Of a stretch of DNA of 64,000 bases, positions 896-39,912 are shown in pieces. Position 1 is the stretch's first letter; each line of letters starts with the position of its first letter. A model generated the notes under the pieces. It did not search any database. It was not told where the DNA came from and saw nothing but the letters and a program-made list of their open reading frames with translations. Where the stretch lies: assembly GCA_965112635.1 (NCBI GenBank), contig OZ218778.1, positions 1,984,001 through 2,048,000 of the forward strand. The letters are read 5' to 3'. This DNA comes from an uncultured bacterium. GTDB taxonomy: Bacteria > Oederibacteriota > Oederibacteriia > Oederibacteriales > Oederibacteriaceae. A program made the position numbers and the translations under genes.

Positions 896-954
896 CCATT
901 TCTTAAATCCTGGGCATAAGTAATCCTTTGAAATAATAGGGGACCCAAATTATT

Positions 955-6210: not shown

Positions 6211-6212
6211 AC

Positions 6213-7118: not shown

Positions 7119-7190
7119 TGAAATATTAAAATATATTCAACTTGCAAAGGTTCAATGCTAAAATTGTTTTCCTAAAATTCAAATTAAGGT

Positions 7191-7265: not shown

Positions 7266-7383
7266 GTTTTATCCTTCTGTGGTCTTCTCCATTATAAAAC
7301 CGCCTGTTTATTCCTTGTGCTTGCGAAACTGATTACCAGCGGTAGAATATTACTCAACGAATGCAAGAAAGCAGGTCGGGATA

Positions 7384-10280: not shown

Positions 10281-10295
10281 AGCCCGCCTTCTAAA

Positions 10296-10721: not shown

Positions 10722-10733
10722 CGATTATTTCCT

Positions 10734-19097: not shown

Positions 19098-21349
19098 TTG
19101 ATTCGTGGCTATACTAAAAAAATAGGCTTTAATTTTAAAGAAAGGTTGGTACTCAGAGTGGGGGTAAACCGTTTGAAATTCACGGTATCCTTCATATTTT
19201 TATTCCTATTGATCTTTTTCGCTGTTCCTCTGCTTCAGGCGGATACAGTCGTAGTCAACAACTTATTAGCTTTACAAGCCGCCGTTTCTGCTTGCAGCGT
19301 AATAAGGCCTCCTGGCGGCAGGGTGATCATCATTCAGCCAGGGACCTATTCCCAAACCGACGAGGTCAACGTTACCATGACGCCAGGCACAGCAGACACG
19401 ATCGACCGTCTTACGATCACCGGTTCCACTGGCAATTACAATGACACGGTCCTGCAGGGTATGGGGATCGATAACACAAATCAAAATTTCAACTTCTGGG
19501 TCCACGATGCCCCCAATGTGACGATCATGAACATGACCCTTAAGAACACCTACTATTCCGCGATCCAGATCGAATTGAACTCCCAAAATTTTGAGGCGCT
19601 CAATGTGAAAATGCTCGATAACGGCGAGTGCGGTTTCAAGATAGCCAGTTCAACAGGGATCCTTGACCCTGTCACTCAGCCCAACTATCCTGATTTTGGG
19701 CTGGTGGAGAACTGCTGGATCGGTTTTTCGTCGACCGGACATCGCACTGTTGTAGAAGGTTTTGACAATGTCGCGGCGCAGGGGTGGGTGGTGGCCCATA
19801 ACACTTTTGTCAATGTTCAAGGGCCCCCGGGCCAGGGTGTCGTGGGTTATGGCTGTTTTGACAAGGGAGGTTCTATCAATTGCACGATTGACAGCAACTT
19901 ATTTCTGGATTGTGACATTGGGGCTTCTTTCGGGGGGGCAGCACGGGTACGCAATTTTTCCGCAACGGGACCTATCCTGTGGAGAACATAGGCGGCATCA
20001 TCAAGAACAATATCATCTGGGACCCTAACGATACCAATGCTGACACGGGGATTTATATCAACTGCGCCCAGAATTCCAAGGTTGAAAATAATACCGTGTG
20101 GAACCAGGCCGCTTGTTACACTGCCTCTCTCACCCCTTACGCCAATTCCATCGAGTTTCGCTTTGTCACCTGCACCGGATGCGTGTGCTACAACAATATA
20201 TGCCAAGGGGCTATCGTGAAGCGGGATGGTGCTGTGTGGGCGGCCCAAACCAATAACCAGCAGCAGTACATGAATTTTCCTCCCTTTCCCTTTGTCAACG
20301 CTGGGGGAGGCGATTTCCGTCTTCTCGCAGGCTCCTCGCCAGTGGATGCCGGTTTGTCCCTGCCTGCGGATGTTCCTGTCGACATAACAGGTACCGCAAG
20401 GCCCCAGGGGTGCTGCTGGGATATCGGTGCCTGGGAATTGATCCAGGGCACTTCAACTTTCACGCGGACTTCCACGCCCACCTATACAGGGACCGCCACC
20501 GCTACGCCGACCCGGACCGCGACCATAAGCCAGACGGCCACCCAGACGTTGACCCCGGCGGCAAGCTTTACCTGGACCGCCACGGCGACCCTGACGCTGA
20601 CCTCGTCGCAGACCCTTACCCCCAGCCAGACTTTTACCATTACCACCACCTCCACCCAAACCGTGACGCCGTCGCAGACCCTGACGCCCAGCCAGACCTT
20701 GACGCCCAGTCAGACTTTGACCTCCAGCCAGACCTTCACCATTACCAGCACCTCCACCCAGACCGGCACCTCGACCCTGACCCTGACCTCCAGCCAGACT
20801 CCGACCTCGAGCCAGACACCCACTGTCACGACCACCGCGACCCAAACCCAAACCCCCAGCCAGACGGCAACAGCTTCTCAAACAGCCACCATTACGCAGA
20901 CATTCACGGTCACCACCACGTTTACCGCGACCCTCACGGGGAGCCAGACCTTTACCGGTACCCAAACCGCCACCGCAACGCAGACTGTTACCCCTTCAAT
21001 GACCTTTACGCCTTCCCTGACTTTTACCAACACGCCGACTTTTATTACCACCCCGCCTACCTTGGGCAACAGCTTTATATATCCTTCGCCAGTCAACGGA
21101 AACAATGCCACGATCGTGTATTTCATGTCAGGGCCCGGGACCGTCAAGATACGAGTGTATAACGAGGCGGCACAGCTGGTGGCGACCTTAGAGGAGAATA
21201 AGCAGGGGGGCCCACAAGCGAGCCTTTTGGATGTGAGTAATTATGTGTCCGGAGTCTATCTCTATTTGATCAACATGAGGTACAACTCATCGGTGACCTA
21301 TACGGGTAACAACAAGGTGGGGCCAAAAAAATTCATAGTGCTGAAATAG
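19098..21349 (+). pseudogene. secreted right-handed beta-helix protein with Thr-rich linker and T9SS-like C-terminal domain, frameshifted at a G7 tract
   Basis: ORFs 19098-19991 and 19979-21349 join if G7 (19932-19938) is G8 (SFGGGSTGTQFFRNGTYPVENIGG); DFRL..GS..VDAG, RPQG..WDIGAWE; CTD YPSP..VKIRVYNEAAQLV..SGVYLY. Confidence 0.75.
20450..21060 (+). repeat. coding Thr/Ser-rich low-complexity repeat (TPSQTL, 18-bp units)
   Basis: acgccgtcgcagaccctg / acgcccagccagaccttg / acgcccagtcagactttg units. Confidence 0.85.
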
Positions 21350-24704: not shown

Positions 24705-24888
24705 CCCCGTCCTCAAAAGCTGGCGATTTCCAGATAAGACAATCCCCCCGGAATACCCCCACAATGCCCTCAATGCTGGGTTAAGTCCCTGCCGGACTGC
24801 TCTGGCTGGTCTGGTTGGTTTAACCGCAACAATCCCGCCTTCAGCGAGGCCTCTTTAAAATACCTCTGGATTCCGGCTAACCGCCAAC

Positions 24889-25213
24889 TGTCCGTAAAAC
24901 TGTCCGTAAAAAGTGTCCGCAAAGAATGTCCGCAAAGAACTGTCCGTAAAAACCTGCTATAAAACAATACTGTTATTAAATAACAATATTCAAGTGTCCG
25001 TAAAAACTGTCCATAAAACTGTCCGCAAAAGTGTCCGCAAAGAATGTCCGTAAAAAGTGTCCGCAAAGAATGTCCGCAAAGAACTGTCCGTAAAAACCTG
25101 CTATAAAACAATACTGTTATTAAATAACAATATTCAAGTGTCCGTAAAAACTGTCCATAAAACTGTCCGCAAAAGTGTCCGCAAAGAATGTCCGTAAAAA
25201 GTGTCCGCAAAAG
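24889..25213 (+). repeat. iteron-like array: 19 copies of TGTCC(G/A)YAAA (12-14 bp units) with a 144-bp higher-order duplication and two AT-rich palindromic spacers
   Basis: Units counted directly; equivalent positions 24901, 25045 and 25189; spacer contains TGTTATT-A-AATAACA. Confidence 0.95.
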
Positions 25214-25223
25214 GCCAGGGTGT

Positions 25224-25232
25224 TGGTATAAT
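25224..25232 (+). promoter_or_regulatory. extended -10 promoter (TGgTATAAT) for the wHTH-secretin operon
   Basis: Perfect TGnTATAAT 9 nt upstream of ATG 25242; the -35 position falls inside the last repeat. Confidence 0.65.
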
Positions 25233-25241
25233 GACCAACCT

Positions 25242-26219
25242 ATGCTGGACGCTTTAAAATCTCTCAGGACCCCAAAAAAGGACACTCAGGGTATCTTTGG
25301 CCTGCTGGCCTGGATATTCGGCGGGGTCTTCTTTTGCCATGTGATTTACCGCCTGTTTATCACCCCTGTGGACGGCTATCTGACCACCCACCAAAAATGG
25401 GTCCATGTCAGCCTGGGAAGCAACCCCTACTTCCTGACCGACCTGGGCCAATCCTGCGTTCCCTTTGTTATCTACATCATCTTCCTGTATCTCTACCTGT
25501 TCCTGCAGGAAGCCCGCTGCTGGGTGCTTTACCGGGCTCTCCAGGACGACCCGGCCCTGAGTATAGGTCAGATGACCTCTTTTCGCGGTCTAAAAGCCTG
25601 GTTCTACCTGTGGCTCGTCTGCCACTGGATGGCCATCCTAGGGGTCTACCGCATCTATACCACGGACGATAACCGGGTCTTTTTTCTCGATCTGACGGTG
25701 TGGTTCTGTTTGTGGGCATTCCTGGTCCAGTGGGCCAGCCAGAGCATCCTCAACCATCTGAGGGAAGTCAGGGACAGCGTGGCCCCCCAGTCTCTCCAAA
25801 AGGTCAGGGAGTCTTTTGGCAGCCTTTTCAAGGATGTCTGGTTCAGCGTGTGGGCTGACTCCATGCTCAAGCCGGAGCCGAAATTCAGGGAGCCTGATCC
25901 AGCGGTATCGCCGCTAGGCGGGCAGACCAGGGTCATCGATGTGGAGGCCGGGCCTGTCCAGGAAAAACCCCAGCCTGAGCCAGCGCCTGATAAGCCGGTG
26001 CAGGAAACCAGGACAGGGCCGGTCAAACAGCAGATATTGGACTGGGCCATCAAAAAGGTTGATTGGTTCAGCCCCAGGGAGCTGGAGGAGGATTTAAAGA
26101 TAAAATCCAAGACACGGCAACGCTATACCAACGAGCTCGTGGGCGAGAACCGTCTGGAAAAGGACGGCTCCGGCCCGCGCAACACAAAGTTCCGGGCGAA
26201 AAGAGGTTCTTTGAAATGA
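25242..26219 (+). CDS. membrane protein (about 4 TM) with Pro-rich linker and C-terminal winged-helix DNA-binding domain
   Basis: Hydrophobic segments in the N-half; C-terminal ILDWAIKKVDWFSPRELEEDLKIKSKTRQRYTNELVGENRLEKDGSGPRNTKFR has a wHTH pattern. Confidence 0.7.
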   Translation: MLDALKSLRTPKKDTQGIFGLLAWIFGGVFFCHVIYRLFITPVDGYLTTHQKWVHVSLGSNPYFLTDLGQSCVPFVIYIIFLYLYLFLQEARCWVLYRALQDDPALSIGQMTSFRGLKAWFYLWLVCHWMAILGVYRIYTTDDNRVFFLDLTVWFCLWAFLVQWASQSILNHLREVRDSVAPQSLQKVRESFGSLFKDVWFSVWADSMLKPEPKFREPDPAVSPLGGQTRVIDVEAGPVQEKPQPEPAPDKPVQETRTGPVKQQILDWAIKKVDWFSPRELEEDLKIKSKTRQRYTNELVGENRLEKDGSGPRNTKFRAKRGSLK

Positions 26220-27634
26220 AACGAGCAGGGCTCCTCTGTTTCTGCCTTGTCCTTGGTCTGGCTGTCCTGGCCAAGTCCCAGGACACCGACACCCTGACCC
26301 TGGGGAAGGGCGAAAGCAAAACTTACACGGTGGGCGACCCTTCCGGCTGTTTCGTCGACAACACCAGCATCCTGTCCCTGCAGACCATTGGAGACAACCA
26401 GATCAAGGTCACGGCCCTGCAACCAGGCCAATGCACCCTGACCCTGCCGGGCAAAGGAGGAAGGAACAGGTACATCGAGGTAGCGGTGTCAGAAACAGTT
26501 CCAAGTTCAAAGTTAAATGTTCCAAGTTCTGACTTGAAACTTGGAACTCGAAACTCGGAACTTGCTCCTAATCCTGACTTGAAACTAGGAACTTCAAATT
26601 CTAATAGGAATCGTGGTTCTAACAGGAGCAATAACGGCGTCAGGGCCAGGGTAAAAGTCGCCGGCGTCAGTCTGTCCACCAACCTGGGACTGGCCAACAG
26701 TGCCCCCACGCCTGAGCCCACGCCGGACCGGACCATGATCCAATACAATGTCAAACTGGTGCAGGTGAGCGAAAGCAACGCCCGCCAGCTGGGCATAGAC
26801 TGGGCCAACACCCTGCAGGGCCCCAATGCCGGCGGTGACACGCCTTTGCATGTGAGCGAACAGGCCAACCCTCCCTTGCTCAACTGGGGCTCGTTCCAGC
26901 GGGGCAGTACGGATGTGAAGCTGGACGCCCTGGTGACCCAGGGCTTTGCCAAGGTTTTGGCCGAACCCATGGTGCTGGTGGAAAACAACTCGACCTCGGA
27001 CAACGGCAACGGAGGACAGCTTCCCCTGGTCAGCGCGGCCCCCTTGTCCAGCAACTCCATCAACCTGAAACAGTACGGCACGACCCTGACCATCGGGAGC
27101 CAGCTTGTCGGGGACGGCAAAGTGGAGACCAAATACAATATCGAGCAGTCCCTGCCTGACAGCACCTACAGCGTGAGCCAGTCCAACGGGGCATCCGCTC
27201 CGGCCCTGCGCAACGGATACGCCCGGGGCCAGGTGTGCTCCAAGCTGGGCGATACCGTGTTCCTGGACAGCCTGGTGCAGGTCCAGCAGATGAAAACCAC
27301 CAGCAAAGTGCCGGTCCTGGGAGACCTGTGGCTCATCGGCGGGATATTCACCAATACCAGCACCCAGGATACCCGCGACTATATCCTCATCTTTATGACC
27401 CCGGACCTGTACGCTACCAGGGCCAAAGCCGGGCAGGAAAAATACTTCCCGGAGCAGGAGGGGAATAAAAGCCTTGACCCAGCCAGGAATGACTGGGACA
27501 GGGAACCCGGCCAGCCCGCGGTTCTGGGCGAAGGACAGCGCAGGATTTTTGGCGTCCTAAATTTGATGCTCGGCATCCCCGATTACTCGCTCCTTTTCCC
27601 CGATCCCGGCAACGCCAACAAAGATGAACAATAA
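26216..27634 (+). CDS. secretin (CpaC/RcpA-like, GspD superfamily)
   Basis: Signal peptide MKRAGLL..; pilus N-domain (LTLGKGES..VTALQPGQCTL); RQLGIDW, AKVLAEP, KQYGTTL, SKVPVLGDLWLIGGIF, ILIFMTP; ATGA overlap with upstream gene. Confidence 0.85.
   Translation: MKRAGLLCFCLVLGLAVLAKSQDTDTLTLGKGESKTYTVGDPSGCFVDNTSILSLQTIGDNQIKVTALQPGQCTLTLPGKGGRNRYIEVAVSETVPSSKLNVPSSDLKLGTRNSELAPNPDLKLGTSNSNRNRGSNRSNNGVRARVKVAGVSLSTNLGLANSAPTPEPTPDRTMIQYNVKLVQVSESNARQLGIDWANTLQGPNAGGDTPLHVSEQANPPLLNWGSFQRGSTDVKLDALVTQGFAKVLAEPMVLVENNSTSDNGNGGQLPLVSAAPLSSNSINLKQYGTTLTIGSQLVGDGKVETKYNIEQSLPDSTYSVSQSNGASAPALRNGYARGQVCSKLGDTVFLDSLVQVQQMKTTSKVPVLGDLWLIGGIFTNTSTQDTRDYILIFMTPDLYATRAKAGQEKYFPEQEGNKSLDPARNDWDREPGQPAVLGEGQRRIFGVLNLMLGIPDYSLLFPDPGNANKDEQ
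26497..26597 (+). repeat. inverted heptamer array inside the secretin ORF
   Basis: agttcca agttcaa agttaaa tgttcca agttctg followed by the complementary acttgaa acttgga actcgaa actcgga ... acttgaa actagga acttcaa. Confidence 0.8.
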
Positions 27635-27828
27635 TGCGTCAAACTCTCTTGTAATAATGCGTTTCCGCTCAAGAGAGTTTGTGCAGAACTAGCTGTTCTA
27701 CATCTCCACACTGGCGTTGGCGGATCGCAACAGCCTTGCGAGCCTGACAATCGTCCCGCTCTCCTTCGGTGTTTCGTCAATCGCCGTAACGCCGAAAGAG
27801 AAATAGATTGCCAAAAAGCGGGAAAGGT

Positions 27829-27891: not shown

Positions 27892-29261
27892 GGGTCATCT
27901 CCCAAGTGAGTGGGTAAATTCTGGTCATTTTAGTTAAACTCAGGGAGCATACAGGTCAGGACTTTTAACCTGAGATACTCTTCGTCCCTTAACCCATATG
28001 TCCTTCTCTGAATCACACGAATCTTGTTGTTCAACCCTTCCACAAAACCCAGTGAGACTTTGTTATCGGGATTGAAGTAGGCCACAATACCCTCCCAATG
28101 GCGCTCGACCAGTCGGGCAAAATCCTCGAATGGTTTGAGACGCTGCCACTTCAGCGAGGCCGTCCAGTTGTCGAAAAACTTTCTAGCTGAAGCTTCGTAG
28201 CTGTAGTCCCAAAGCTGTGTAAAGGACTCTTTGAGCATGTAGGCAGTATTGAGTCGCTTGTTGGCGGCCAGCAAGGCCTTGAGAGCCCTCTTTCCATCCA
28301 GCGAAAGGTTCTCGTGATTGGAAAGCAGGTTGTACTTCTGGCCTTTGATGAAACGCCGCCCTCTACCTGAGACTCTGGCATACTCGCTCTTGCGTATCTT
28401 GTCCAAGGCCTCATTGAGCTGGCGTTGGACATGAAAATGGTCGTAGAGAATGGCGGCGTTGGTGTGCGTCCATGTAGCACTCTCAAAGGCTGGCCACATG
28501 TCCATCACCGCAAGTCGGATTTTTGCGCACCTGCTTGGTCCAATCTCCTCAAAAAAGAGTTCCATACTCTCCTCGGAACGGTCTATCCCGCCAAACCAGA
28601 TAGGCCTCTTTTTCTCCAGGTCACTGACCACGATCCGATAGGTATGCCCCTTACGGATAGAGATTTCGTCAATACCGATGACCTCGGGCTTGGGCTTTCC
28701 GGCTCTGCGGAGTTTTTCCTGCATATACTGCTTCTCAAGCTCTTTGACGGTCTTCCAATCCAGCCTTAACTCTTTGGCTACGGCCTGGATCGTCGAAGTA
28801 CTGCAACGATTGCCCACATAGTAGCCAAAGCGCTTGGTGTAGAAGGGATTATCCGCTAGAAAGGCGAACTTCTCTTGCTTCACCATGCCACAACTCTTGC
28901 ACAAGACCCGCCGGACTTCCAACTCCAGGAAGACCCGATAATCACCGCAGGAGAGGTCTCGCACCCTCCTGATCCTTCGGTCATAAAAACTGCGGTGCTC
29001 CAGGCCGCAGGTCGGGCAGACTGTTTTTTTTGAAGTCTCTTCAGCCGGATGATACGGGCTTTGGGGTCTCCAAAAACTCCAAATACTTCTGTCTCCGGCG
29101 TGAAACCCTTAAACCGGTATGCGTCTGTAAGCCGTCTGTGTTTTTTCATCCACCTAGAAAACACCAAAAGCTACAGCCTTGCAAGTCCTAAAACCCTTGC
29201 TACACTTACCTTAATTCATCTTTCTGGCTAACTTTTTACCCACTCGGGAAGGAGAAGAGCC
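27892..29261 (-). mobile_element. ISL3-family insertion sequence (1370 bp)
   Basis: Imperfect 27-bp IRs (GGGTCATCTCC..GAGTGGGTAAA / GGCTCTTCTCC..GAGTGGGTAAA); 8-bp TSD AAAAGAGG at 27884-27891 and 29262-29269. Confidence 0.93.
27930..29167 (-). CDS. ISL3 transposase in two frames joined by a -1 shift at an A8 tract
   Basis: IGIDEIS, VMDMWPAF, YDHFHV, VEGLNNKIR; a -1 shift at 29024-29031 gives KKTVCPTCG..RRVRDL (ISL3 zinc finger). Confidence 0.88.
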
Positions 29262-29280: not shown

Positions 29281-30978
29281 ATGGAATGCAATAAGTGTGG
29301 TAAACAGATATCAGGAATTAGTTATTTCTTTAGTGCTCCTGGGGAATTATGGGAAAAATGTAGGAAGTGCGGCAAGGGCTTTTGTAAACATTGTATAAGC
29401 GTAGATAGTGAAGGTAAATATTTCTGTAATGAATGTAAAGGGATAGTCAAAATGAATGGAACTATTGAAAAAGCTAATAAGAAAATAAATCTAGCACCAC
29501 TAGGATTATTGATTCTGTTCCTAGTCATTCCGGTTGTTGCATTTATTGCCTCTTATGCAATTCAAGGGCAGCTAGATACAAATTTTCGGACCGCATTACT
29601 CAAGGATTATCCGGAGCGATCTACTGAAATATCTACATTAACGGCATCTTCTGCTTGTAGTAATCAGAAGTTTAGGGCTGCTGCGGGAGATTTTTGTGAA
29701 TTAAATGACATAATAAATTTGATGAGGCTATGCGCCATTTTTACTGCTGTTTTAGGTATCGGGCTTCTTATTATCATTAAAATTGCTGGGTTGATTACAC
29801 GTGGCAGCCGAAGATTTCTATTACTTATTTTTAAACCAGGATTACACATAACCATGTTAGCGCTGAGTTTGCTAATGATATTGAATGCTTCTTTAGGTAT
29901 TTTCGCAATATATTATGGTGAATCTGTTTTCTTAGGAAGGGTTCATGTATTTGTTATAGTTGGTTTAGGACTTGGGGCGCTGTTTGGTGTTATATCAATG
30001 TTTAAGGCGCAATTAAGTACAACCAAAAGAGCTTCGGTATTTGTTCTTGGAAAAAAACTAGAACCAGAACATCAACCGAAAATATGGGAATTTGTTAACG
30101 AACAATCAAGGCAAATGGGTGCAGAACGACCGCAGGCAATAGTTGCTGGATTAGAACCAAATTTTTATGTTACCGAAGCGGATGTTATCTGTTTGGATGG
30201 CACAATAAAAGGTAGAACAATGTATGTCTCTATGCCTCTTTGCCGTATTCTCAATGTCGAAGAAATAAAAGCAGTCCTTGATCATGAGTTAGCCCACTAC
30301 AAAGGACTTGATACTAAGTTTAGTAAAAAGTTTTATCCAATATATCGTGGGGCAACACAAGGACTTGTCAATATATCTTCAGGTTATTCAGACCATGGGG
30401 CAGCAGGTCAAATAGTATTAATGCCAGCAATGCTAACCCTGGCTTATTTTCTAAATTCTTTTTCTGTCGCAGAAAATAAAATTAGCAGAGAAAGAGAACT
30501 GGCCGCTGATAGTGAAGCGGCAAAGCATGAAGGATCTCAAAGAATAGCTACGGCTCTTGTTAAAATTCAGACATTTTCAACTATCTGGAATGTTGTGCAA
30601 CAATTAATGTGTAAATCAATTGGAGAAGGTAAAATGATAATAAATGCCAGTGAATTTTATTCAACAATAGTTCAGGACAGAGATAAAGAAAACCCTTCTA
30701 TCAATGTTTTAGAAGAAGGACCAGCCCACCCAACAGATAGTCACCCTCCACTTAATCAACGTTTTGAAAATTTAAATTTAACGTTAAATGATGTTATGAA
30801 AGATGTTGAAAATACAGCGCCGCGTAAACCCGCCATAGGTTTATTTGATAATGTTGAGACGCTAGAAAAAGAACTAACAGAAGCCGAACATATGTGGATG
30901 GTACGAACTGGTAGAGCGCAAGCCCCAGTAGAAAATCCAAATAAAGAGGAAACGGAAAATAAAATCCCCGCAAAATAA
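29281..30978 (+). CDS. M48 (HtpX-like) membrane zinc metalloprotease with N-terminal Cys-rich zinc finger
   Basis: CNKC..CRKC..FCKHC..CNEC; TM segments; AVLDHELAH; SRERELAAD; DSHPP. Confidence 0.85.
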   Translation: MECNKCGKQISGISYFFSAPGELWEKCRKCGKGFCKHCISVDSEGKYFCNECKGIVKMNGTIEKANKKINLAPLGLLILFLVIPVVAFIASYAIQGQLDTNFRTALLKDYPERSTEISTLTASSACSNQKFRAAAGDFCELNDIINLMRLCAIFTAVLGIGLLIIIKIAGLITRGSRRFLLLIFKPGLHITMLALSLLMILNASLGIFAIYYGESVFLGRVHVFVIVGLGLGALFGVISMFKAQLSTTKRASVFVLGKKLEPEHQPKIWEFVNEQSRQMGAERPQAIVAGLEPNFYVTEADVICLDGTIKGRTMYVSMPLCRILNVEEIKAVLDHELAHYKGLDTKFSKKFYPIYRGATQGLVNISSGYSDHGAAGQIVLMPAMLTLAYFLNSFSVAENKISRERELAADSEAAKHEGSQRIATALVKIQTFSTIWNVVQQLMCKSIGEGKMIINASEFYSTIVQDRDKENPSINVLEEGPAHPTDSHPPLNQRFENLNLTLNDVMKDVENTAPRKPAIGLFDNVETLEKELTEAEHMWMVRTGRAQAPVENPNKEETENKIPAK

Positions 30979-31025
30979 ATAAGTATTTTATTAATGGAAC
31001 AGAATAGTGAATGGGATAATCAAAT

Positions 31026-31934
31026 ATGATAAAAACAGATAAATACGCCCAATTGATTGAACAACTTGAGCGAGCTAGTGCATTATTAGCAGATGCTCAA
31101 AGACAACTATACGACTATAATGAAGTTATTAAAGAATACATAAATCAAAAATCTTATTCATGGAAAGATCAAATCCTTTTTGAGTATGTAGCAACAACCA
31201 TGCAGGGCAAAAAACCTGTTTGGGTGGAATTAACTGAAAAAGTCAAAACCCCAATAAATCTATTTTTGGAATTATATGAAATAATTATGAGGCATTATTA
31301 TTACAATGAACTTTTGCAGTTTTCCGAAAAAAAATCTAAATTGCTAATGCTATTTCAGAATCTTTCAAAGGCATATACTGAACTTAATTTAGATCATATA
31401 AAAGTACTAAACGACCAGTTAGGATTGTTTGGGGGTGAAATAAAAACCCGTTTAGATTGGCTAGAGGCGAATAATAGGACAGACCCTTCAAATATTTTAC
31501 CTACAGTTTTTATTTCTAAGGGGTTTTCCGAAGAGGAAAATAAATTAAATGAATTTTTTGAAGGTTATATTGAGGCTTTAAAAATAGTGTGCATTTCGGG
31601 AGAGCCCTATGATTCCTCATCAATACCTGAAAAAATCCGAAAGAGAATAGATTCTTCAGATGCTCTTATAGCAATTATACAAAAACGATATTCTTCTCAA
31701 TCTGGAACATCTGGAGCTGGTTCTGCTTGGGTAATAAGAGAAATAGAATACTCATTAGGGAAAATAAAACCAGTTATAATATTAGCTGAAAAAGGTGTTG
31801 AGACTGCCGGATTTGAGTTTGAAAAAGAAATAATATATTTTGATTTGAAGGATCAACCATTAACAACATCGTCTATAAAGAAATTGCTCCAAGCTTTAAC
31901 AAAATATGGGCTTACTGGAAAGACTACAGAGTAA
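31026..31934 (+). CDS. helical N-domain + TIR-like/nucleoside deoxyribosyltransferase-like domain protein
   Basis: VFISKGF, KIRKRIDSSDALIAII, SAWVIREIEYSLGKIKPVIILAE (conserved Glu). Confidence 0.65.
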   Translation: MIKTDKYAQLIEQLERASALLADAQRQLYDYNEVIKEYINQKSYSWKDQILFEYVATTMQGKKPVWVELTEKVKTPINLFLELYEIIMRHYYYNELLQFSEKKSKLLMLFQNLSKAYTELNLDHIKVLNDQLGLFGGEIKTRLDWLEANNRTDPSNILPTVFISKGFSEEENKLNEFFEGYIEALKIVCISGEPYDSSSIPEKIRKRIDSSDALIAIIQKRYSSQSGTSGAGSAWVIREIEYSLGKIKPVIILAEKGVETAGFEFEKEIIYFDLKDQPLTTSSIKKLLQALTKYGLTGKTTE

Positions 31935-32011
31935 ATTGGTTCAATCTAGCCCCCCATCCTCATTTCCACAATTTATCCGCCTGAAATCTTTCAAGAGATG
32001 GATAGATAGGT

Positions 32012-32770
32012 ATGCTAAAAAATAAAAAGAAATTTAATGAGAAAAAAATGATTTCATTAATAAAAGCCCTCTTGAAATCTGGCTCCAAAAAAGACCATGA
32101 GGCAGCCATGAGGAGTCTCCCAAAAAATATACAAATTGAGGTAGCAAAGAAAATAAAAATAAAGCGTCAGTTGGAAAGATTTGTATTCCTATCAGATTTG
32201 TTAAAAAAATGTGATGAATATCAACCAATAATAGCTATGGATAACAAACGTAGATCAATGGAAGATTTATATAAACTTATGCAGTATTCAAAAGAAGTTT
32301 GGACTGTTGCCTGCTCTATGTATCGAAATGGTCGGTTCGCAATAGCTAAATTTTTAGGAATTGTTTGTATGGAGGAAGTGGCCAAATATTGGATATGTGA
32401 ATTACAATTTCTATTTTCCTGGATATCTAATACAAATAACAGTACCAAATCCCAGAGGAAAACTAATACTGATAGAAACAGGAATCCTTTATTCTCACAT
32501 CGAGATAAACATCTTATTTCTGTTCTCTCCGGATTGCTTATGAATTCACGAGCCGATAGGCGTTTAGGAATAGATAATATTAATGAATTCATAAAAATTG
32601 TTGAGAATAAAAAGCTGGAATCTATTAGACAATCTTGTATCTATGCTGAATCATGTGATGGTAAGTTTTTGGTACCCCCTGAACGTCATGCTAAGCAAGA
32701 CGCAGGATTCTATATTGCATTAGCTGGTGAGATTTTATTAGCGAATTCGGGGTCGCGTCTTGACATGTGA
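32012..32770 (+). CDS. AbiV-family (HEPN-like) abortive infection protein, C-terminus apparently replaced by a repeat
   Basis: A..LGIVCMEEVAK, H.DKH, LESIRQSCIYAE pattern; last codons (SGSRLDM*) derive from the repeat at 32749. Confidence 0.65.
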   Translation: MLKNKKKFNEKKMISLIKALLKSGSKKDHEAAMRSLPKNIQIEVAKKIKIKRQLERFVFLSDLLKKCDEYQPIIAMDNKRRSMEDLYKLMQYSKEVWTVACSMYRNGRFAIAKFLGIVCMEEVAKYWICELQFLFSWISNTNNSTKSQRKTNTDRNRNPLFSHRDKHLISVLSGLLMNSRADRRLGIDNINEFIKIVENKKLESIRQSCIYAESCDGKFLVPPERHAKQDAGFYIALAGEILLANSGSRLDM

Positions 32771-32804
32771 CATTCAAAAATTGAAGGTTCAGTAATCCCC
32801 GCCT
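32749..32804 (+). repeat. 56-bp GGGGTC-REP-like element, copy 1
   Basis: Identical to 37094-37149; diverged copy split by IS110 at 37900/39263; cores at 35126, 35375, 35410 and inverted at 35466. Confidence 0.9.
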
Positions 32805-32901
32805 AATTTCGCAATTTTTCCGCCGGCGGGTTTTTAGCCCTGCCATACTTCCTAGCCAGACAATCATGGAGAGATTAAAAACAAGGAACTTCTTAAACCC
32901 C

Positions 32902-32923
32902 CGTGGTAAATTTATTTACCACG
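32902..32923. promoter_or_regulatory. 22-bp palindrome CGTGGTAAAT-TT-ATTTACCACG, copy 1
   Basis: Perfect 10-bp arms; recurs at 39398 and 39492. Confidence 0.75.
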
Positions 32924-32973
32924 ACCCCCAGCCCCCTGAAGGTCGCGCTACGCTTGCCTTCAAATGATCCCCG

Positions 32974-33035
32974 GGGTCCCTCTGTATACTTATTTATGGA
33001 AGGGACCCGTTGAAGGATCATTCAGATCCTTCAAC
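32974..33035 (+). repeat. 35-bp inverted-repeat unit + 27-bp GTTGA..TCAAC hairpin, copy 1
   Basis: GGGTCCC-N21-GGGACCC then GTTGAAGGATC-ATTCA-GATCCTTCAAC. Confidence 0.85.
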
Positions 33036-33225
33036 ACCTAGTGAAAAGGTGCCTGGTCTTCACATATAAGGTCGCCTCCCGCCTCCCCCCGACCCCTTTT
33101 CGCGATTTTTCCCCCGGCGGTTTTTTTAACCATTCGCCCCACCATCCTAAACATCAAATGCTTTAGATTCTAAATTTCCAGATTTGTCACTTTCACACTT
33201 GCGCAAACGTGGAAGTGACCTACCC

Positions 33226-33299
33226 GTTGTCCATAAGAATACTAATAGACAATAAAAATAATGACACCTATAGACAACAATATAATTGTATGCTAGATT
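33226..33299 (+). promoter_or_regulatory. putative operator and promoter of the XRE gene
   Basis: GTTGTCCATAA-N6-TAATAGACAAT inverted repeat, plus a half-site TATAGACAAC overlapping TAGACA-N17-TAGATT. Confidence 0.5.
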
Positions 33300-33330
33300 T
33301 CAGGGTATAAAGGCAGGGAGAGGATGGGGG

Positions 33331-33768
33331 ATGGTGATGGTAAAGATTATTCATGGGGCAATAAAGGATAGGGAGCTGACCAAAGAGGAACAGGAGTTGG
33401 AGTCGCAGTTGATGCGGGAAGAGGATATTTACAGACGCGTTGCGCTCAGGATAAAGATGGAGAGGAAAGAACATGGCCTGACCCTGACCCAGCTGGCAGG
33501 GAAGACAGGATTGAACCTGAGCTTCATCGGCAATATTGAGCGGTGCAACAGCAAGCCTACCCTTTATACCCTGGAAAAGATCGCGAAGGCCCTTGGGCTG
33601 GAAGTATCTGAATTATTCATGGTCACCCACAGCAATCCCACGCCAAAGAGAACCCTCCAAAAATACAGCGTAGAGGCCAGATTAAAAGAAAAGATAGGCC
33701 ATTTATTGAGCGGGAAACCGGAAAAAGAACTGAAAAAGATCCATAAAATACTCAAACTGATAGTTTGA
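33331..33768 (+). CDS. XRE-family helix-turn-helix regulator
   Basis: RIKMERKEHGLTLTQLAGKTGLNLSFIGNIERCNSKPTLYTLEKIAKALG. Confidence 0.9.
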   Translation: MVMVKIIHGAIKDRELTKEEQELESQLMREEDIYRRVALRIKMERKEHGLTLTQLAGKTGLNLSFIGNIERCNSKPTLYTLEKIAKALGLEVSELFMVTHSNPTPKRTLQKYSVEARLKEKIGHLLSGKPEKELKKIHKILKLIV

Positions 33769-33782
33769 GAGGGGGAGAGGCC

Positions 33783-35111
33783 GTGAGCGAATCAGACTTC
33801 CTTAAAAAAGAATATGGTGATTTCCTTGCCCAACATCCGCGCAAAGACGGATGGAAGGTTTACGAATGCCACGAAAGATTATCAAGAATGCTTAGTCTCT
33901 ATTATTTGCTGGATTTTATCAGAGACAAACATCCGGAAATTTTAAAAAAGCGTCATGCTCCTGCCGAGGTAAGGACAGAGGACATGATGGGAGAACCGGA
34001 TGATAGTCATCCAGTGGAAAAGGGCAATGAGTGGGATGAAACCAAGGAGCTGGATGCCAACGGCTGGATAGGGGACATTGAGGTCGAGTGGACGGGGCAA
34101 CCGATCCACTACCATGCTTTTTATGTCATCGGGAAAGATCAGATGCATGGCCGTATGGGAGAGATAATTTTGGTGGCCACAAAGTCCAATGCCGCTATGA
34201 GAGATATACACCGCTCCCTGGATGAATACAGTCTATCCCGTGAAAAGAAGGAAGAAAAGACCATCCGTGTCATCAATGGACTGGGTATACCCATCCTGCC
34301 TGTGTCCTGGAATGATATTTTTCTGGGTGAGTGGCTGAAAGAGGATATCCGCTCCAATGTGGATTCATTCTTTCAGAGCAAGGAAATATATCAGGAAGTG
34401 GGTATTTCCTACCGCCGGGGATTTTTGCTGACCGGCCCGCCGGGCAACGGTAAGACCCTGACCATCAAATGCCTAGCCTATAACATCAAGGCCTCTTTTG
34501 TTACCGTGATAACCAAGGCCGAGGTGGAGGAGGGTGAGATCGAGGCAGCCTTTTATCATGCCAGCAGAATGGCGCCCGCAGTGATCGTGTTCGAGGACTT
34601 GGACCGGCTGGTCGAATCAAAGGCTGTTTCCCTGTCCCATTTTTTGAATTTGCTGGACGGGTTTAAAGTCACCGAAGGGGTTTTGGTGATCGCGACCTCC
34701 AACCATCCGGAAAAGCTGGACCAGGCCCTGCTCCACCGGCCCAGCCGGTTCGACCGTATATTCAGGTTTCCTTTGCCGGGACTGATCCAAAGACAGGCTC
34801 TCCTGGAGAAAAAGGGGGCCAGGTATTTTTCGATCGAGACGATCAAGGCAGCGGCCAAAGGTTCCAGCGGGTTTTCCATGGCCTATGTGCAGGAGATCGT
34901 TATCAACGCCCTTTTGGACTGGCATTATAACGGTAGGGGGGATGATAAGGACCGATATTTGCTGAAAAGTCTGGAAACTCTGAAAGCGCAAAGGAAAGGC
35001 GCTTCTAAATTGGATGAGGAACTGGCTGACAGGGAAAATATTGGGTTCCTGACACCGGAGGGAAGATCTTTCGGGCCTGTACTCTCCCCAGAGCTGATGC
35101 CGGTATCTTGA
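33783..35111 (+). CDS. AAA+ ATPase
   Basis: YRRGFLLTGPPGNGKT, IVFEDLD, FLNLLDG, ATSNHPEKLDQALLHRPSRFDR. Confidence 0.9.
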   Translation: MSESDFLKKEYGDFLAQHPRKDGWKVYECHERLSRMLSLYYLLDFIRDKHPEILKKRHAPAEVRTEDMMGEPDDSHPVEKGNEWDETKELDANGWIGDIEVEWTGQPIHYHAFYVIGKDQMHGRMGEIILVATKSNAAMRDIHRSLDEYSLSREKKEEKTIRVINGLGIPILPVSWNDIFLGEWLKEDIRSNVDSFFQSKEIYQEVGISYRRGFLLTGPPGNGKTLTIKCLAYNIKASFVTVITKAEVEEGEIEAAFYHASRMAPAVIVFEDLDRLVESKAVSLSHFLNLLDGFKVTEGVLVIATSNHPEKLDQALLHRPSRFDRIFRFPLPGLIQRQALLEKKGARYFSIETIKAAAKGSSGFSMAYVQEIVINALLDWHYNGRGDDKDRYLLKSLETLKAQRKGASKLDEELADRENIGFLTPEGRSFGPVLSPELMPVS

Positions 35112-35483: not shown

Positions 35484-35762
35484 CAGGATAAATATTTGCC
35501 CACGAGTTCAATAAGCAAGTGCAACACTTAGGAGCAGGAGGGGGGAAAAAGCCTTGATCCGGGCGTGGACTGGAAAGAAATCGAACCAAGCCAGCCCGCG
35601 GTGCTGGGCGAGGGACAGCGCAGGATGTTCGGTGTCCTAAATTTGATGCTCGGCATCCCCGATTACTCCCTCCTTTTCCCCGCTCCCGGCAACGCCAACA
35701 AAGATGAACAATAATGCGTTCCCTTGTTGGCGTTGGCTGATCGCAACAGCCTTGCGAGCCTG
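35484..35762 (+). repeat. second copy of the secretin 3' end and downstream DNA
   Basis: EQEGGKSLDP..QPAVLGEGQRRMFGVLNLMLGIPDYSLLFPAPGNANKDEQ*; homologous to 27434-27746. Confidence 0.92.
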
Positions 35763-35888: not shown

Positions 35889-36152
35889 ATGACCAGTTTA
35901 ACGGCAGCGGAGGCGAGGACCCATTTTTCCGAGATCATCAATAAAGTGGCCTACGGAAAGGACAGGGTGCTCTTGACCCGGCACGGCAAGGGCCTGGCCG
36001 CCGTCATATCCATGCAGGACCTGGATGTGCTTAAAAAGCTTGAAGACAGCAGCGACCTAAGGGAGGCAGGAAAAGAACTGTTAAAAGCCAAAAACGAAAA
36101 AACAGTACCTTGGGACAAGCTAAAACCTTCGGCGGGCAAAAAAGGAAAGTAA
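35889..36152 (+). CDS. Phd/YefM family antitoxin
   Basis: AAEARTHFSEIINKVAYGKDRVLLTRHGK. Confidence 0.92.
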   Translation: MTSLTAAEARTHFSEIINKVAYGKDRVLLTRHGKGLAAVISMQDLDVLKKLEDSSDLREAGKELLKAKNEKTVPWDKLKPSAGKKGK

Positions 36153-36409
36153 TGCCTTACGCGGTCGAGTTCACTAAAAACGCGGCAAAAGCTTTCAAAA
36201 AACTACCCCACCATGTTCAGTTGGACCTGGAAAAACCCATCACCAGGTTAACCGGCAATCCGAGAGGCTGCGGTTGCGAGAAGCTTTCGGGCGAGGAAAA
36301 TCTATACAGGATTAGACAAGGTGACTACAGGATCGTTTACCAGATCAGAGATGCTGTTCTTCTTGTTCTCATTGTAAAGCTGGGTCACCGCCGGGACATT
36401 TACCGATAA
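36152..36409 (+). CDS. RelE/ParE family toxin
   Basis: YAVEFTKNAAK, NPRG.GCEKLSG..YRIRQGDYRIVY, LGHRRDIYR. Confidence 0.93.
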   Translation: MPYAVEFTKNAAKAFKKLPHHVQLDLEKPITRLTGNPRGCGCEKLSGEENLYRIRQGDYRIVYQIRDAVLLVLIVKLGHRRDIYR

Positions 36410-36421
36410 ACATCCTCCATT

Positions 36422-36522
36422 GGATGTTCGGTGTCCTAAATTTGATGCTCGGCATCCCCGACTACTCACTGCTTTTCCCTGATCCTAATCACCCCATAAC
36501 AACCGATGAGGAAACAAAATAA
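36422..36522 (+). repeat. third (shorter) copy of the secretin 3' end
   Basis: MFGVLNLMLGIPDYSLLFPDPNHPITTDEETK*. Confidence 0.88.
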
Positions 36523-36529
36523 TGAAGGT

Positions 36530-36558
36530 TTGACATGAGGGGTGAGGGGGAGGAAAAT
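36530..36558 (+). promoter_or_regulatory. repeated promoter module, copy 2
   Basis: TTGACA-N17-GAAAAT. Confidence 0.65.
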
Positions 36559-36603
36559 TAGATCATTGCTTTATGATGAAATTAAATCTGGAGGATACAA
36601 AAT

Positions 36604-37149: not shown

Positions 37150-37553
37150 CCCCGACCTCTTTTAAAAAATATAGGCCCTGATCATTTTCATCCTGCTTAG
37201 AATATGCTACTCCATAGCCTTCAGATTGTTCATTTCCACGTTTTCGCAATTGCGAAAATGCGAAAGTGACAATTATTGGATTTGGTAGGGAACGATAGAG
37301 CAGGGAATAAGTTCATTAAAATCGAATGCTTCGCCTCCCCCCAAGCTTCCAAAATTTCCAGCCCTAAATCTTTGCTCCTAATTGTCCTGTAGCTAATGCC
37401 TTTTTTAAGCACTTCGGCCTTTTAGCAATCGCCGTAACGCCGAAATGGATAAAAGCGGATAAAGTTTGACACCGGTATAGCAGGGGATACAATTTAAGGA
37501 AAGCGCCAGAGTGGCGCATAAGAGCATTCGACATTTTGGGAGGAGGTGAAACA

Positions 37554-37886: not shown

Positions 37887-37903
37887 AAGGGGGTAAATTG
37901 GGG

Positions 37904-39262
37904 TCACCTATGAAAAAAGAAGTCAAGCCAAAAGCACACCCCAAATCCGTTCAGAACCTACAAAGGGTCTCTAGTTCCATTTAAGGACTAGGAAGCCAGT
38001 CACCTATAGATGCTCAAAGGCATATGATGAAGTAGGAACCGGTGGCACAATCACATCTTTCGGATTTAGCTGAAATAATCCTCAGCTATTCCATGACCCC
38101 GGGGTGCTCGCCGGCCTTTTCCTGCCCTAAAGCAACAAGCCTAAAAGTTTCCTTGCGTTTGAGCATATACCAAATGACTTCTAGGAGTTTTCGAGCCACA
38201 GCAACTCTTCCTGTATTGGCGCCATGTTTACTTTTAACCCGTTCAAACAAATCCTTGAACCGCCGGTCTTTCTTGATTATATGATGACTGTTTTCCACTA
38301 GGATCCATCTGAGCCATTTAGAACCTTGCTTTGTTAACCCCCCGTGTCTTTCTTTATCTGCGGATTGATAGGTTGATGGTGCCAGTCCAGCGTACGAGCA
38401 TAACTTTTTTGGATTTGGAAACCTGTCTATCTCTCCAATCTCGCTCAAAATCAGCAGGGCAGAATAGATTCCAATTCCAGGAATGCTCTGCAACATTTGG
38501 CCTTCTTCGCTTAGCTGAATCTGTTTATTTAGTTTTTTTTTGTTCTCCAACAGTTCCTTGTTTACCGCGTCAATCAACCTCAAAAATCCATTTACTTCTT
38601 CACGATAGCTCTCTCTTAATTCAAGACCGGCTAGCCACTTACGGCCTTTCTTGCCGAAAACATCGCTCATTTCATCTTCGTGGCCATCCTTCATTAAAAC
38701 CGCGTGAATCTTGCACTTTAACATTGTCCTTTGTGAGACCAGGGAGGCGCGATATCGGAGCACCTCCCTCAGGTCCCTAATTTCTCTTTTGGGAATGTAA
38801 GCGCTAGGCACCAGGTCGGCTCTGGATAAGTGGGCCAGGGTCGTACTGTCTATGGTATCCGTTTTTATTCGTGCTGAGGCGATGGCTTTCACTTTCAAGG
38901 GATGCGCTAAGGTAACTAGGGGCAGATGCTTCTCTATCGTCTCGTAAAAGAACATCCAGTTTCCGGTTGCCTCTACAACAACCTTGGTATCCCTAGGATA
39001 TTTCCCGAAAAAACTCTCCATCTCCTCCCGGTTGTTATTTACTCTCCTTTTCTCTAATACCTTTCCTTTATCATCCATCGCTACGACTTGACTGAACTTC
39101 TTGTGAAGATCTACCCCCAGATGTATACTCATTTTTGCCGCACCTCCTTAAAAGATTTGTTCCAGCCTTACGGCTGAGAACCCAGGTTCCCCAAGAACTT
39201 TGGTCCTTGAGACCCAGTATATCTTTTAGGATGTGCGGTTTTCCTTTTTCATCACATCACCT
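37904..39262 (-). mobile_element. IS110-family (IS1111-like) element inserted in a REP-like repeat
   Basis: TCACCT at both junctions (37904-37909, 39257-39262); sub-terminal IR ATGAAAAA(A/G)G; the flanks rejoin to a copy of the 56-bp repeat. Confidence 0.85.
38086..39132 (-). CDS. IS110 transposase/recombinase
   Basis: GVDLHK, VVEATG, KTDTIDS (DEDD); SIPGIG; SYAGLAPSTYQS. Confidence 0.95.
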   Translation of the reverse strand: MSIHLGVDLHKKFSQVVAMDDKGKVLEKRRVNNNREEMESFFGKYPRDTKVVVEATGNWMFFYETIEKHLPLVTLAHPLKVKAIASARIKTDTIDSTTLAHLSRADLVPSAYIPKREIRDLREVLRYRASLVSQRTMLKCKIHAVLMKDGHEDEMSDVFGKKGRKWLAGLELRESYREEVNGFLRLIDAVNKELLENKKKLNKQIQLSEEGQMLQSIPGIGIYSALLILSEIGEIDRFPNPKKLCSYAGLAPSTYQSADKERHGGLTKQGSKWLRWILVENSHHIIKKDRRFKDLFERVKSKHGANTGRVAVARKLLEVIWYMLKRKETFRLVALGQEKAGEHPGVME

Positions 39263-39813: not shown

Positions 39814-39912
39814 ATTTATCCGTTTTTTGGGAATTGTTGAGGCCATTGGAGAATGTTATAATCCCAGCATTTGAAGGGTTCTAAAAATAATTACCAACAA
39901 AGGAGAATGCCG

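Follow-up and report, generated by a model that had tools for sequence, protein, structure and literature searches.

What does an array of 19 direct repeats do in front of a gene for a membrane protein with a putative DNA-binding tail, and why is that gene joined to one for a secretin? The question arises from a 64-kb window, which is the whole stretch of DNA that we analyzed. A preliminary description of this DNA suggested a module that tethers or exports DNA. We instead lean, at slightly less than an even chance, toward a membrane-bound transcription regulator that would bind its own direct-repeat operator array and autoregulate an accessory CpaC-like secretin. The features on which the argument is built are the following:

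24889..24950, + strand: repeat cluster A, five copies of TGTCCGYAAA at 12-14 bp spacing
24951..24994, no strand: spacer 1, 44 nt, 77% A+T, with the dyad TGTTATT-A-AATAACA
24995..25094, + strand: repeat cluster B, eight copies, the second being the variant TGTCCATAAA
25095..25138, no strand: spacer 2, 44 nt, identical to spacer 1
25139..25211, + strand: repeat cluster C, six copies, the last (25202-25211) at the promoter -35 position
25224..25232, + strand: extended -10 element TGGTATAAT, 10 nt before the ATG at 25242, a candidate near-leaderless promoter
25242..26219, + strand: gene 1 (P0001, 325 aa), predicted TM helices at residues 17-35, 70-88, 117-135, and 146-164
26216..27634, + strand: gene 2 (P0002, 472 aa), signal peptide, pil_N domain (25-90), low-complexity linker, secretin domain (~175-398), C-terminal tail
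27640..27681, + strand: perfect 12-bp inverted repeat CAAACTCTCTTG / CAAGAGAGTTTG with an 18-nt loop, 6 nt past the secretin stop

The window contains 20 exact matches to TGTCCRYAAA where 0.46 would be expected by chance, and 0 of 100 shuffles reached that number. Nineteen of these lie on the + strand between 24889 and 25211, and the single stray copy is at 57538 on the - strand. Outside the array there are seven matches with one mismatch, compared to 7.7 expected for the whole 64-kb window; there is no excess of such sites, and the motif is therefore confined to the array. The start-to-start spacings (12, 13, 13, 14 / 54 / 13, 12, 12, 13, 13, 13, 14 / 54 / 13, 12, 12, 13, 13) divide the copies into clusters of 5, 8, and 6, and in each of the two spacers the dyad extends to 11 of 12 positions. 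The motif count and the spacings agree with the initial account of 19 direct copies arranged 5+8+6 around two identical AT-rich palindromic spacers. Eight of the ten core positions are invariant across all 19 copies, so that variation is limited to two core positions and to the linkers, which are 2-4 nt long and vary in both length and sequence. The 12-14 bp spacing corresponds to no helical phasing. The sole match in an Rfam search is at chance level (E = 0.41). We do not count a 171-aa minus-strand ORF (24770-25285) as a gene, since it belongs to no family, runs across the start of gene 1, and owes its sequence to the repeats.

The array also has a higher-order structure. Positions 24896-25039 and 25040-25183 are 99% identical, and TRF returns a period of 144 bp (2.2 copies, 98% matches), which corroborates the 144-bp duplication noted previously. 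The identity of the units points to a recent duplication, and because much of the regularity of the array stems from it, the 19 copies should not be counted as independent evidence of selection. A different factor may bind the array, or none at all. One alternative of this kind is a recently expanded minisatellite that lacks a dedicated binder or is occupied by a general nucleoid protein. Copy number would change by unequal recombination between the 12-14-bp and the 144-bp units and so modulate promoter strength, generating a contingency locus for a surface-exposed secretin, while the tail of the gene 1 protein would have another role. We consider both this state of the array and this mechanism unlikely. 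The near-identity of the 144-bp units and the rapid turnover of the locus family speak for them, as does a gene 1 wHTH that is unproven. A further point in their favor comes from genome contigs, where a pattern of three TGTCCNNAAA units retrieves 112 loci in unrelated genomes of many phyla, each with a short array of 3-11 copies, indicating that such arrays arise readily. The most copies are 11 (L011) and 10 (L079); at least one of the arrays is coding (L048), and many others read the same way by eye. None of the 112 loci encodes a relative of P0001, P0004, P0005, P0002, or P0007, and we rejected them as comparative evidence because they are unrelated to the present locus. Against the minisatellite, copies of the strict motif never exceed four per array at these loci, and copy variation in the present array is concentrated in the linkers and two core positions while the remaining eight do not vary.

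The position of the array relative to the promoter also bears on this alternative. The last repeat occupies the place expected for a -35 element upstream of TGGTATAAT, and the 30 nt before the gene 1 ATG contain no SD-like motif. This geometry agrees with the extended -10 promoter and nearly leaderless gene that had been proposed. That the array stops precisely at the -35 position of a promoter for a gene with a probable DNA-binding tail is a further argument against a minisatellite. A consensus promoter scan did not call the TGGTATAAT promoter because its -35 region fails the 4-of-6 rule applied to that element. We note that TGnTATAAT occurs three times over both strands of the window, which is about chance level. 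The stop codon of gene 1 overlaps the start of the secretin gene in an ATGA at 26216-26219, the link expected from the preliminary description. The inverted repeat downstream may mark the end of the operon; it is followed by no T-run, and a terminator scan made no call there.

Four 19-residue segments of the gene 1 protein are hydrophobic (Kyte-Doolittle means 1.44-2.07) and are conserved in its relatives P0004 and P0005. These are followed by an amphipathic segment, a Pro-rich linker (~209-256), and a C-terminal domain (~255-325) that is basic, with 18 K+R versus 11 D+E. The about four TM helices and the Pro-rich linker ascribed to the protein are thus present. The C-terminal wHTH ascribed to it is weakly supported: the sub-threshold profile matches are consistent with one another, but neither AlphaFold2 model reproduced the fold. 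Searches of Pfam, NCBIfam, PHROG, and PADLOC gave no family match for P0001, and in profile searches no DNA-binding family reached any curated threshold for P0001 or P0005. In a PDB profile search, nine matches have E < 1, and each of them is a winged-helix DNA-binding domain (GntR, Z-alpha, MntR, Lrp/AsnC). Below threshold, P0001 matches HVO_A0261_N (E = 0.014) and AbiEi_4 (E = 0.15), and P0005 matches FeoC, HVO_A0261_N, MarR_2, Penicillinase_R, and DnaD_N in Pfam, all within residues 257-320. An Atlas neighbor cluster carries HTH_24/IclR/DeoR with a score of 0.86, which we use as a lead only. The AlphaFold2 model of full-length P0001 has a pLDDT of 51 and no confident fold; that of the C-terminal domain, made from a two-row alignment, has a pLDDT of 64 and a pTM of 0.27 and contains two long helices with the wing absent. 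On the sub-threshold profile matches, the C-terminal domain is a probable wHTH. The K+R counts of P0001 are 4 in the N-terminal tail, then 2, 3, and 2, then 4 in the 30 residues past TM4, and P0004 has 8 K+R in 26 residues past TM4. This charge pattern weakly favors an N-in/C-in topology, in which the putative DNA-binding domain would be cytoplasmic. A weak fifth hydrophobic segment (~184-206, scores of 1.39-1.43) in P0004 and P0005 could place the tail in the periplasm.

The gene 1 family is tiny, with three matches among 1.84 billion representative proteins. P0005 is a divergent paralogue of 324 aa, apparently from the same genome, that is 28% identical to P0001, has the same architecture, and aligns with it over residues 16-310, the C-terminal domain included. 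The alignment of P0004 with P0005 reaches the last residues of P0004, located in the first helix of the C-terminal domain, and P0003 is a copy of gene 1 disrupted by IS110. Judged from these alignments, gene 1 is a real gene whose architecture is conserved in relatives. A word-index protein search with gene 1 returned the query itself as the only one of 897 candidates, and a profile built from the three family members matched only proteins that are apparently of one genome. A search for related loci in genome contigs gave 55 pattern matches with none confirmed, in a collection evidently without the host genome. We put just under an even chance on the locus being a self-contained, lineage-restricted operon whose first product would be a membrane-bound one-component regulator.

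The downstream gene is a secretin gene, as had been stated. P0002 scores 74.4 bits against PF00263 (cut-off 27.5), covering profile positions 1-167 of 169, and 25 bits against PF13629 (pil_N, cut-off 23). Its scores for the NCBIfam secretin subfamilies are all far under the cut-offs (best 68 vs 284). The combination of an N-terminal pil_N and a C-terminal secretin domain is that of CpaC/RcpA from Tad/Flp pili, and the relative P0010 is annotated by JGI as "pilus assembly protein CpaC". Unlike CpaC/RcpA, P0002 has a low-complexity linker in place of the BON-like N-domains seen in its relative P0008, its upstream partner is a membrane regulator rather than CpaB/RcpC, and no tad genes are beside it. 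T2SSE/T2SSF/pilin genes lie at 1-7842, 17 kb away, with TadB/C-like T2SSF genes at 5341-7118. The gene may encode a minimal CpaC-like secretin, probably an accessory or spare outer-membrane channel for the type IV or Tad-like pilus machinery encoded 18-25 kb upstream. A secretin paralogue (P0007) exists, and two secretin 3' fragments lie in the window 8-9 kb downstream of the locus. We rejected an inserted element as the source of the C-terminal tail of the secretin, as two further fragments have the same tail, conserved in protein sequence.

In the strong form of the suggestion of DNA export, the module would hold this DNA at the inner membrane beneath the secretin so that it can be exported; in a variant, a periplasmic tail would act as a receptor for DNA taken up through the channel. 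Secretins do pass DNA-containing structures, and P0002 matches the M13 pIV family (phrog_1012, 4.6e-15) and, far under their cut-offs, HofQ models. Because of the possible fifth hydrophobic segment, a tail in the periplasm is formally conceivable. However, the matches to phage and plasmid secretins reflect distant, generic homology, with ≤27% identity among the matches listed, and the pil_N domain is of the CpaC type that is typical of pilus systems. The predicted periplasmic loops of the gene 1 protein (~34 and 10 residues) are too short to reach an outer-membrane channel. Moreover, no gene for an ATPase, coupling protein, relaxase, Zot-like protein, coat protein, or ssDNA-binding protein is found at the locus. 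Both forms of this reading appear very improbable to us. The claim of DNA export, or of DNA tethering for its own sake, finds no support, as Pfam scans of 52 ORFs spread over the window reveal no DNA-transport gene at or beside the locus.

The arrangement of the array calls for a comparison with partition centromeres and plasmid iterons. For stbS/StbA and tubC/TubR, short direct-repeat arrays in two sets are described that lie inside the autoregulated promoter of the operon encoding their HTH binder (10.1101/2022.04.29.490116). The StbA operon of R388 is autorepressed and has no dedicated NTPase, and NTPase-free segregation is documented for both R388 and pSK1 (10.1101/2022.04.29.490116). StbA is soluble and plasmid-borne, with 10 repeats of 11-bp period, whereas the present locus is chromosomal and combines a membrane-anchored protein, 19 repeats of 12-14 bp period, AT-rich dyad spacers, and a secretin partner. 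No sequence relationship of gene 1 to StbA was detected in the plasmid search. For TubR/tubC, the type III partition system of pBtoxis, seven 12-bp direct repeats in two sets are reported, which a winged-helix protein coats to form a DNA-protein filament (10.1101/2022.04.29.490116). The 12-bp period of tubC is close to that seen here, but our window contains no TubZ-like GTPase, the locus sits outside any plasmid or phage, and the protein is embedded in the membrane. Of the features of a partition centromere, the locus has the repeat array but no partner NTPase at or beside it among the 52 ORFs scanned (the StbA type lacks one too) and no plasmid or prophage setting.

This strong formal likeness allows the array to be read as a centromere- or iteron-like site belonging to a mobile element that has decayed or integrated, with the membrane-anchored gene 1 protein positioning or segregating DNA without a dedicated NTPase, by the logic of StbA/stbS or TubR/tubC. 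The surroundings are mosaic, with an ISL3 element 270 bp downstream, a low-GC defense-like island, an IS110 element, and toxin-antitoxin-like ORFs, and the module is multicopy (P0003, P0005, P0007, and the two secretin 3' fragments); both points fit a mobile origin. Against it, fab genes, rnc, smc, and a tRNA mark the window as part of the chromosome. Both genes have a G+C of 0.56-0.60, like that of neighboring chromosomal genes, and the locus looks native or, on composition, not obviously foreign. In the same scans of 52 ORFs, neither the locus nor its immediate neighbors showed a Rep initiator, ParA/ParM/TubZ, relaxase, coupling protein, Zot-like ATPase, or integrase. The 44-nt spacers beside the repeats are AT-rich, a possible unwinding element if this were an iteron origin, but the adjacent Rep gene is absent, and the cores are 10 bp long while iterons are typically 17-22 bp. 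One-mismatch matches to the DnaA box number 16 in the window versus 12.9 expected, with no cluster, and the array itself contains none. Neither 72,556 plasmids (two records, E ≥ 0.7) nor 50,697 phages (no records) yielded a significant match to P0001; BLAST of the array DNA against plasmids gave no match either, a negative made weak by the low-complexity filter. A mobile-element centromere or iteron is therefore, in our estimate, quite unlikely, and with no replication or partition gene nearby, the iteron or centromere likeness put forward in the preliminary description is unsupported as a function. We consider still less probable that the 19-site array and the polytopic protein form an NTPase-free anchor of DNA to the membrane, in which winged-helix tails would coat the array and fix the locus, or a former mobile element, at the inner membrane for positioning, segregation, or coupling of DNA to the coexpressed secretin. 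Equally slim is the chance that such an anchor corresponds to the membrane-attachment centromere of the old replicon model.

Binding of the array by the adjacent gene product, with autoregulation, is the most economical reading, and stbS/StbA and tubC/TubR offer documented parallels to such an arrangement. Membrane-anchored HTH proteins alone are not new, because transcription regulators embedded in the membrane are widespread; one survey counts 50,302 in 9,673 genomes, and more than two TM regions are present in 27% (PMC10269533). Like the transmembrane transcription regulators (TTRs) ToxR, CadC, and BcrR, the gene 1 protein is membrane-embedded, has its own (here putative) DNA-binding domain, and would act on a promoter from the membrane. 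The ToxR/CadC type has an N-terminal OmpR-type wHTH, a single TM helix, and a periplasmic sensor, none of which describes gene 1. Its putative DNA-binding domain follows the four TM helices at the C-terminus and belongs to no above-threshold Pfam DNA-binding family, a periplasmic sensor domain is absent, and Trans_reg_C (OmpR-type) gives no match in P0001 even at E ≤ 10. The 19-site target array and the cotranscribed secretin also set this locus apart from the TTRs. Like the gene 1 promoter, ToxR-regulated ctxAB has tandem sites upstream, in its case TTTTGAT heptads. That no two-gene system of an array-preceded membrane regulator and a secretin has been described, as first asserted, is in line with our literature search, which returned nothing relevant.

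In the autoregulatory reading, the four helices would anchor the gene 1 protein in the inner membrane with both termini in the cytoplasm, and the Pro-rich linker of ~50 residues would let the small basic winged-helix domain reach DNA. Copies of this domain would bind the 10-bp TGTCCGYAAA cores head-to-tail, 12-14 bp apart, and coat the clusters of 5, 8, and 6. The promoter would be a consensus extended -10 without a -35 element. Since the promoter-proximal site sits exactly at the -35 place, binding there would most likely keep the bicistronic mRNA repressed (negative autoregulation), with activation as the alternative. The many sites would give a membrane-restricted factor high avidity for a single target, and the signal for the polytopic domain would be a cue from the envelope or membrane, possibly the secretin load.

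Unless the DNA-anchoring reading is true, the general importance of the locus is limited by the rarity of its family. If the regulatory reading is true, the locus would be a clean natural case of a membrane-confined transcription factor that finds and holds its promoter, with one target, 19 tandem sites, and its own gene adjoining. Gene 1 would then represent a new family of DNA-binding membrane proteins missed by current domain libraries, which suggests that surveys of membrane regulators undercount such proteins. That it is paired with a stripped-down secretin hints that control of an outer-membrane channel is linked to the envelope.

An array of direct repeats had been claimed ahead of gene 1 in the preliminary description, and we find it exactly there: 19 exact copies of TGTCC(G/A)YAAA occupy 24889–25211 on the + strand. 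The window holds 20 exact matches to TGTCCRYAAA, the other being a lone copy at 57538 (− strand); dinucleotide-preserving shuffles put the chance level at 0.46 per window, and 0 of 100 shuffles reached 20. The start-to-start steps (12, 13, 13, 14 / 54 / 13, 12, 12, 13, 13, 13, 14 / 54 / 13, 12, 12, 13, 13) divide the copies into clusters of 5, 8 and 6, separated by two identical 44-nt spacers (77% A+T), each of which contains the dyad TGTTATT-A-AATAACA. Tandem Repeats Finder returns a 13-bp period with 25.1 copies and a 144-bp period with 2.2 copies and 98% matches, with 99% identity between the two complete 144-bp units. The layout seems to have arisen by recent tandem duplication of an ancestral arrangement with about 5 repeats, a spacer and 6 repeats, so the 19 copies are not independent. 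Within the 10-bp core, 8 of 10 positions are invariant across copies, and the 2–4-nt linkers differ in both length and sequence. A contingency minisatellite with no binder, as a reading of these repeats, seems unlikely to us. One-mismatch matches outside the array number 7 in the rest of the window versus 7.7 expected, and with no excess elsewhere the motif belongs to the gene 1 promoter only. To the left of the array there is no convincing gene, and the 61-aa and 85-aa ORFs found there have no family match. As a side observation, two copies of the TGTCCATAAA variant read TGGACA on the opposite strand, each 17 nt from AATATT in a spacer, which gives two leftward promoter-like sites at 25157–25129 and 25013–24985 (− strand).

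The array runs directly into the start of a bicistronic operon, of which two features are needed here:

25224–25232, + strand: extended −10 element TGGTATAAT, upstream of the ATG at 25242
26216–26219: ATGA overlap of the gene 1 stop and the gene 2 start

The −35 position is taken up by the last repeat (25202–25211). No Shine–Dalgarno-like motif was found ahead of the gene 1 ATG; the secretin start, by contrast, has GAGG at −13. Because the homologues of the gene 1 product P0001 and an independent gene call (its relative P0003) share the same start methionine, the start at 25242 and a near-leaderless mRNA are a reasonable prediction. A consensus promoter scan of the window did not list the TGGTATAAT promoter, since its −35 region is poor. 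TGnTATAAT occurs three times on the two strands of the window, about the chance number, and all three occurrences lie directly upstream of ORF starts: the second, at 39854–39862, is 9 nt ahead of an ORF start at 39871 and marks another candidate near-leaderless gene, and the third, at 4667 (− strand), lies ∼27 nt ahead of the gene for an 812-aa ATPase. A perfect 12-bp inverted repeat follows 3′ of the secretin stop.

P0001 (325 aa) has no family match in Pfam, NCBIfam, PHROG or PADLOC. Hydropathy places four membrane-spanning segments at residues 17–35, 70–88, 117–135 and 146–164, after which come an amphipathic stretch, a Pro linker (12 prolines in ∼52 residues) and a basic tail (18 K+R versus 11 D+E). 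The K+R distribution weakly favors a cytoplasmic location for both termini, a topology on which the weak fifth hydrophobic segment of the P0001 relatives casts some doubt. The tail is a putative winged helix, as suggested by concordant signals that are each non-significant alone. Five distinct wHTH families hit a single stretch of the relative P0005 (residues 257–320) with E = 0.009 to 0.29; P0001 itself matches HVO_A0261_N (E = 0.014) and AbiEi_4 (E = 0.15). When the two C-terminal domains were combined into a profile and compared with PDB sequences, all nine matches with E < 1 were winged-helix DNA-binding domains, aligned over helices 2–3 and the wing. One Atlas neighbor cluster carries HTH_24/IclR/DeoR with a score of 0.86, which we take as a lead only. 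AlphaFold2 gave no confident model of full-length P0001 (pLDDT 51) or of the tail (pLDDT 64, pTM 0.27), the latter consisting of just two long helices. The putative recognition helix is SKTRQRYTNELV in P0001 and RQRTCQRLLKGLV in P0005.

We tentatively propose that gene 1 encodes a transmembrane transcription regulator that controls its own bicistronic operon via the array. The tail would bind the tandem cores head-to-tail, and occupancy of the array would control the operon. Repression is the probable sign: a promoter with a consensus extended −10 can do without an activator, and its −35 position lies under the proximal site. Regulators bound to the membrane are common and often polytopic (PMC10269533). 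For StbA/stbS and TubR/tubC, arrays of short direct repeats in two sets are documented within the promoter of the operon encoding the DNA-binding protein; stbS and tubC are centromeres of plasmids and serve as operators as well (10.1101/2022.04.29.490116). Because such centromeres have this double role, the centromere analogy drawn in the preliminary description is formally apt. There is no sign here of a replicon to segregate. The window is chromosomal (plsX-fabH-fabD-fabG-fabF-type genes, RNase III, SMC and a tRNA); domain and family scans of its ORFs found no replication, partition, conjugation or filamentous-phage assembly genes, and the window has no DnaA-box cluster. We regard an iteron or centromere as a distinctly unlikely reading of the array. 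A membrane-attachment centromere formed by the array and gene 1 would be of high interest if true; we hold it to be very unlikely.

Repeats of this general form occur elsewhere. We scanned the genomes of 185,579 species for TGTCCNNAAA units occurring three times in a row and obtained 112 loci, which are short arrays in unrelated phyla with differing variable positions; the strict motif reaches at most 4 copies at any of them, and any variant at most 11. Relatives of gene 1 or gene 2 are encoded at 0 of the 112, and these loci show only that such short arrays arise easily. By eye, many of the Bacteroidales look-alikes seem to encode (D-V-x-K)n linkers, which was confirmed for the locus L048 alone: its 9809–11236 (− strand) encodes a 475-aa protein in which a (D-V-H-K)n linker immediately precedes a wHTH-like segment at the C-terminus. 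Linkers of this tetrapeptide-repeat class have no relation to the locus in the window.

The secretin P0002, encoded by gene 2, begins with a signal peptide and a pil_N domain, continues through a low-complexity linker into a full secretin domain and ends in a conserved tail. It falls far under every cutoff of the NCBIfam secretin subfamilies and is at most 27% identical to phage and plasmid secretins among the matches listed. A type IV/Tad-like pilus set at 1–7842, accompanied by a Yip1 protein and tRNA-Asn, contains three T2SSE ATPases (one partial, one of 412 aa and one of 812 aa with MshEN+T2SSE), two T2SSF proteins and a pilin. The window shows no secretin belonging to this set, whose partner may be the secretin at 26216. 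Service of the module in DNA export or uptake is, in our judgment, extremely unlikely. Within the DNA for the low-complexity linker, we also noted an imperfect inverted repeat of ∼60 nt (26502–26565; −18.4 kcal/mol as DNA, z = −2.98, with 1 of 200 shuffles folding as well), which causes a chance-level Rfam miRNA match. The secretin paralogue P0007 lacks 10 residues in this region, and a small palindromic element may have inserted here in frame. Separately, coding tandem repeats with periods of 18, 66, 84 and 102 lie at 20567–20848 within an ORF (19979–21349) whose match to a T9SS C-terminal sorting domain is sub-threshold.

The region right of the operon contains mobile elements, defense-like genes and fragments of the module itself. 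The two insertion elements are as follows:

∼27905–29250, right of the operon: ISL3-family element, its 11-bp terminal inverted repeats GAGTGGGTAAA / TTTACCCACTC identified by eye
38086–39132, − strand, likewise right of the operon: IS110 transposase, of the same family as the element interrupting P0003

About 30 profile positions are missing from the start of the ISL3 transposase ORF, which points to a frameshift in its N-terminal part. A low-GC island (0.31–0.42) at 29281–35111 encodes an M48-peptidase-like protein, a sub-threshold TIR/DUF4062 protein, AbiV (PADLOC, 1.9e-22) and an HTH_3 protein whose gene overlaps that of an AAA ATPase with IetA-like matches. Orphan copies of the secretin C-terminal 66 codons (35484–35711, 70% identical at the protein level) and 31 codons (36418–36513, 69%) flank two overlapping small ORFs at 35889–36409, which on visual inspection alone resemble an antitoxin of the Phd/YefM type and a toxin of the RelE/ParE type. 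Non-coding sequence from downstream of the secretin recurs at 35728–35762, 36525–36561 and 37412–37445; together with the orphan ends, these copies are evidently remnants of further copies of the module.

A full-text search of the literature for secretins linked with membrane-bound or winged-helix regulators and repeats found nothing relevant. The components, a membrane regulator, an operator array of direct repeats and a secretin, all belong to known kinds. We have found no precedent for the protein family, which is uncatalogued, for an array of this size and layout, or for the association with a secretin. A HMMER search of 1.84 billion representative proteins returned three relatives of gene 1. 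P0005 (324 aa, 28% identity to P0001) shares the architecture of P0001, tail included, and a 63-member Atlas cluster lies near it. P0004 (285 aa, 31% identity), a metagenomic protein, aligns with P0005 until it stops within the tail's first helix, and is probably C-terminally incomplete. P0003 is identical to P0001 over residues 1–137, after which its tail is a 96% match to the end of the IS110 element (window 37898–37981); to judge from this match, it is a second, IS-disrupted copy of gene 1. We infer that P0001, P0003 and P0005 are paralogues in one genome. P0007 is 44% identical to P0002, with ∼90% identity over the first 91 residues and an eroded secretin domain. Given these disrupted, eroded and fragmentary copies and the few relatives, the module belongs to a small, lineage-specific family with fast turnover.
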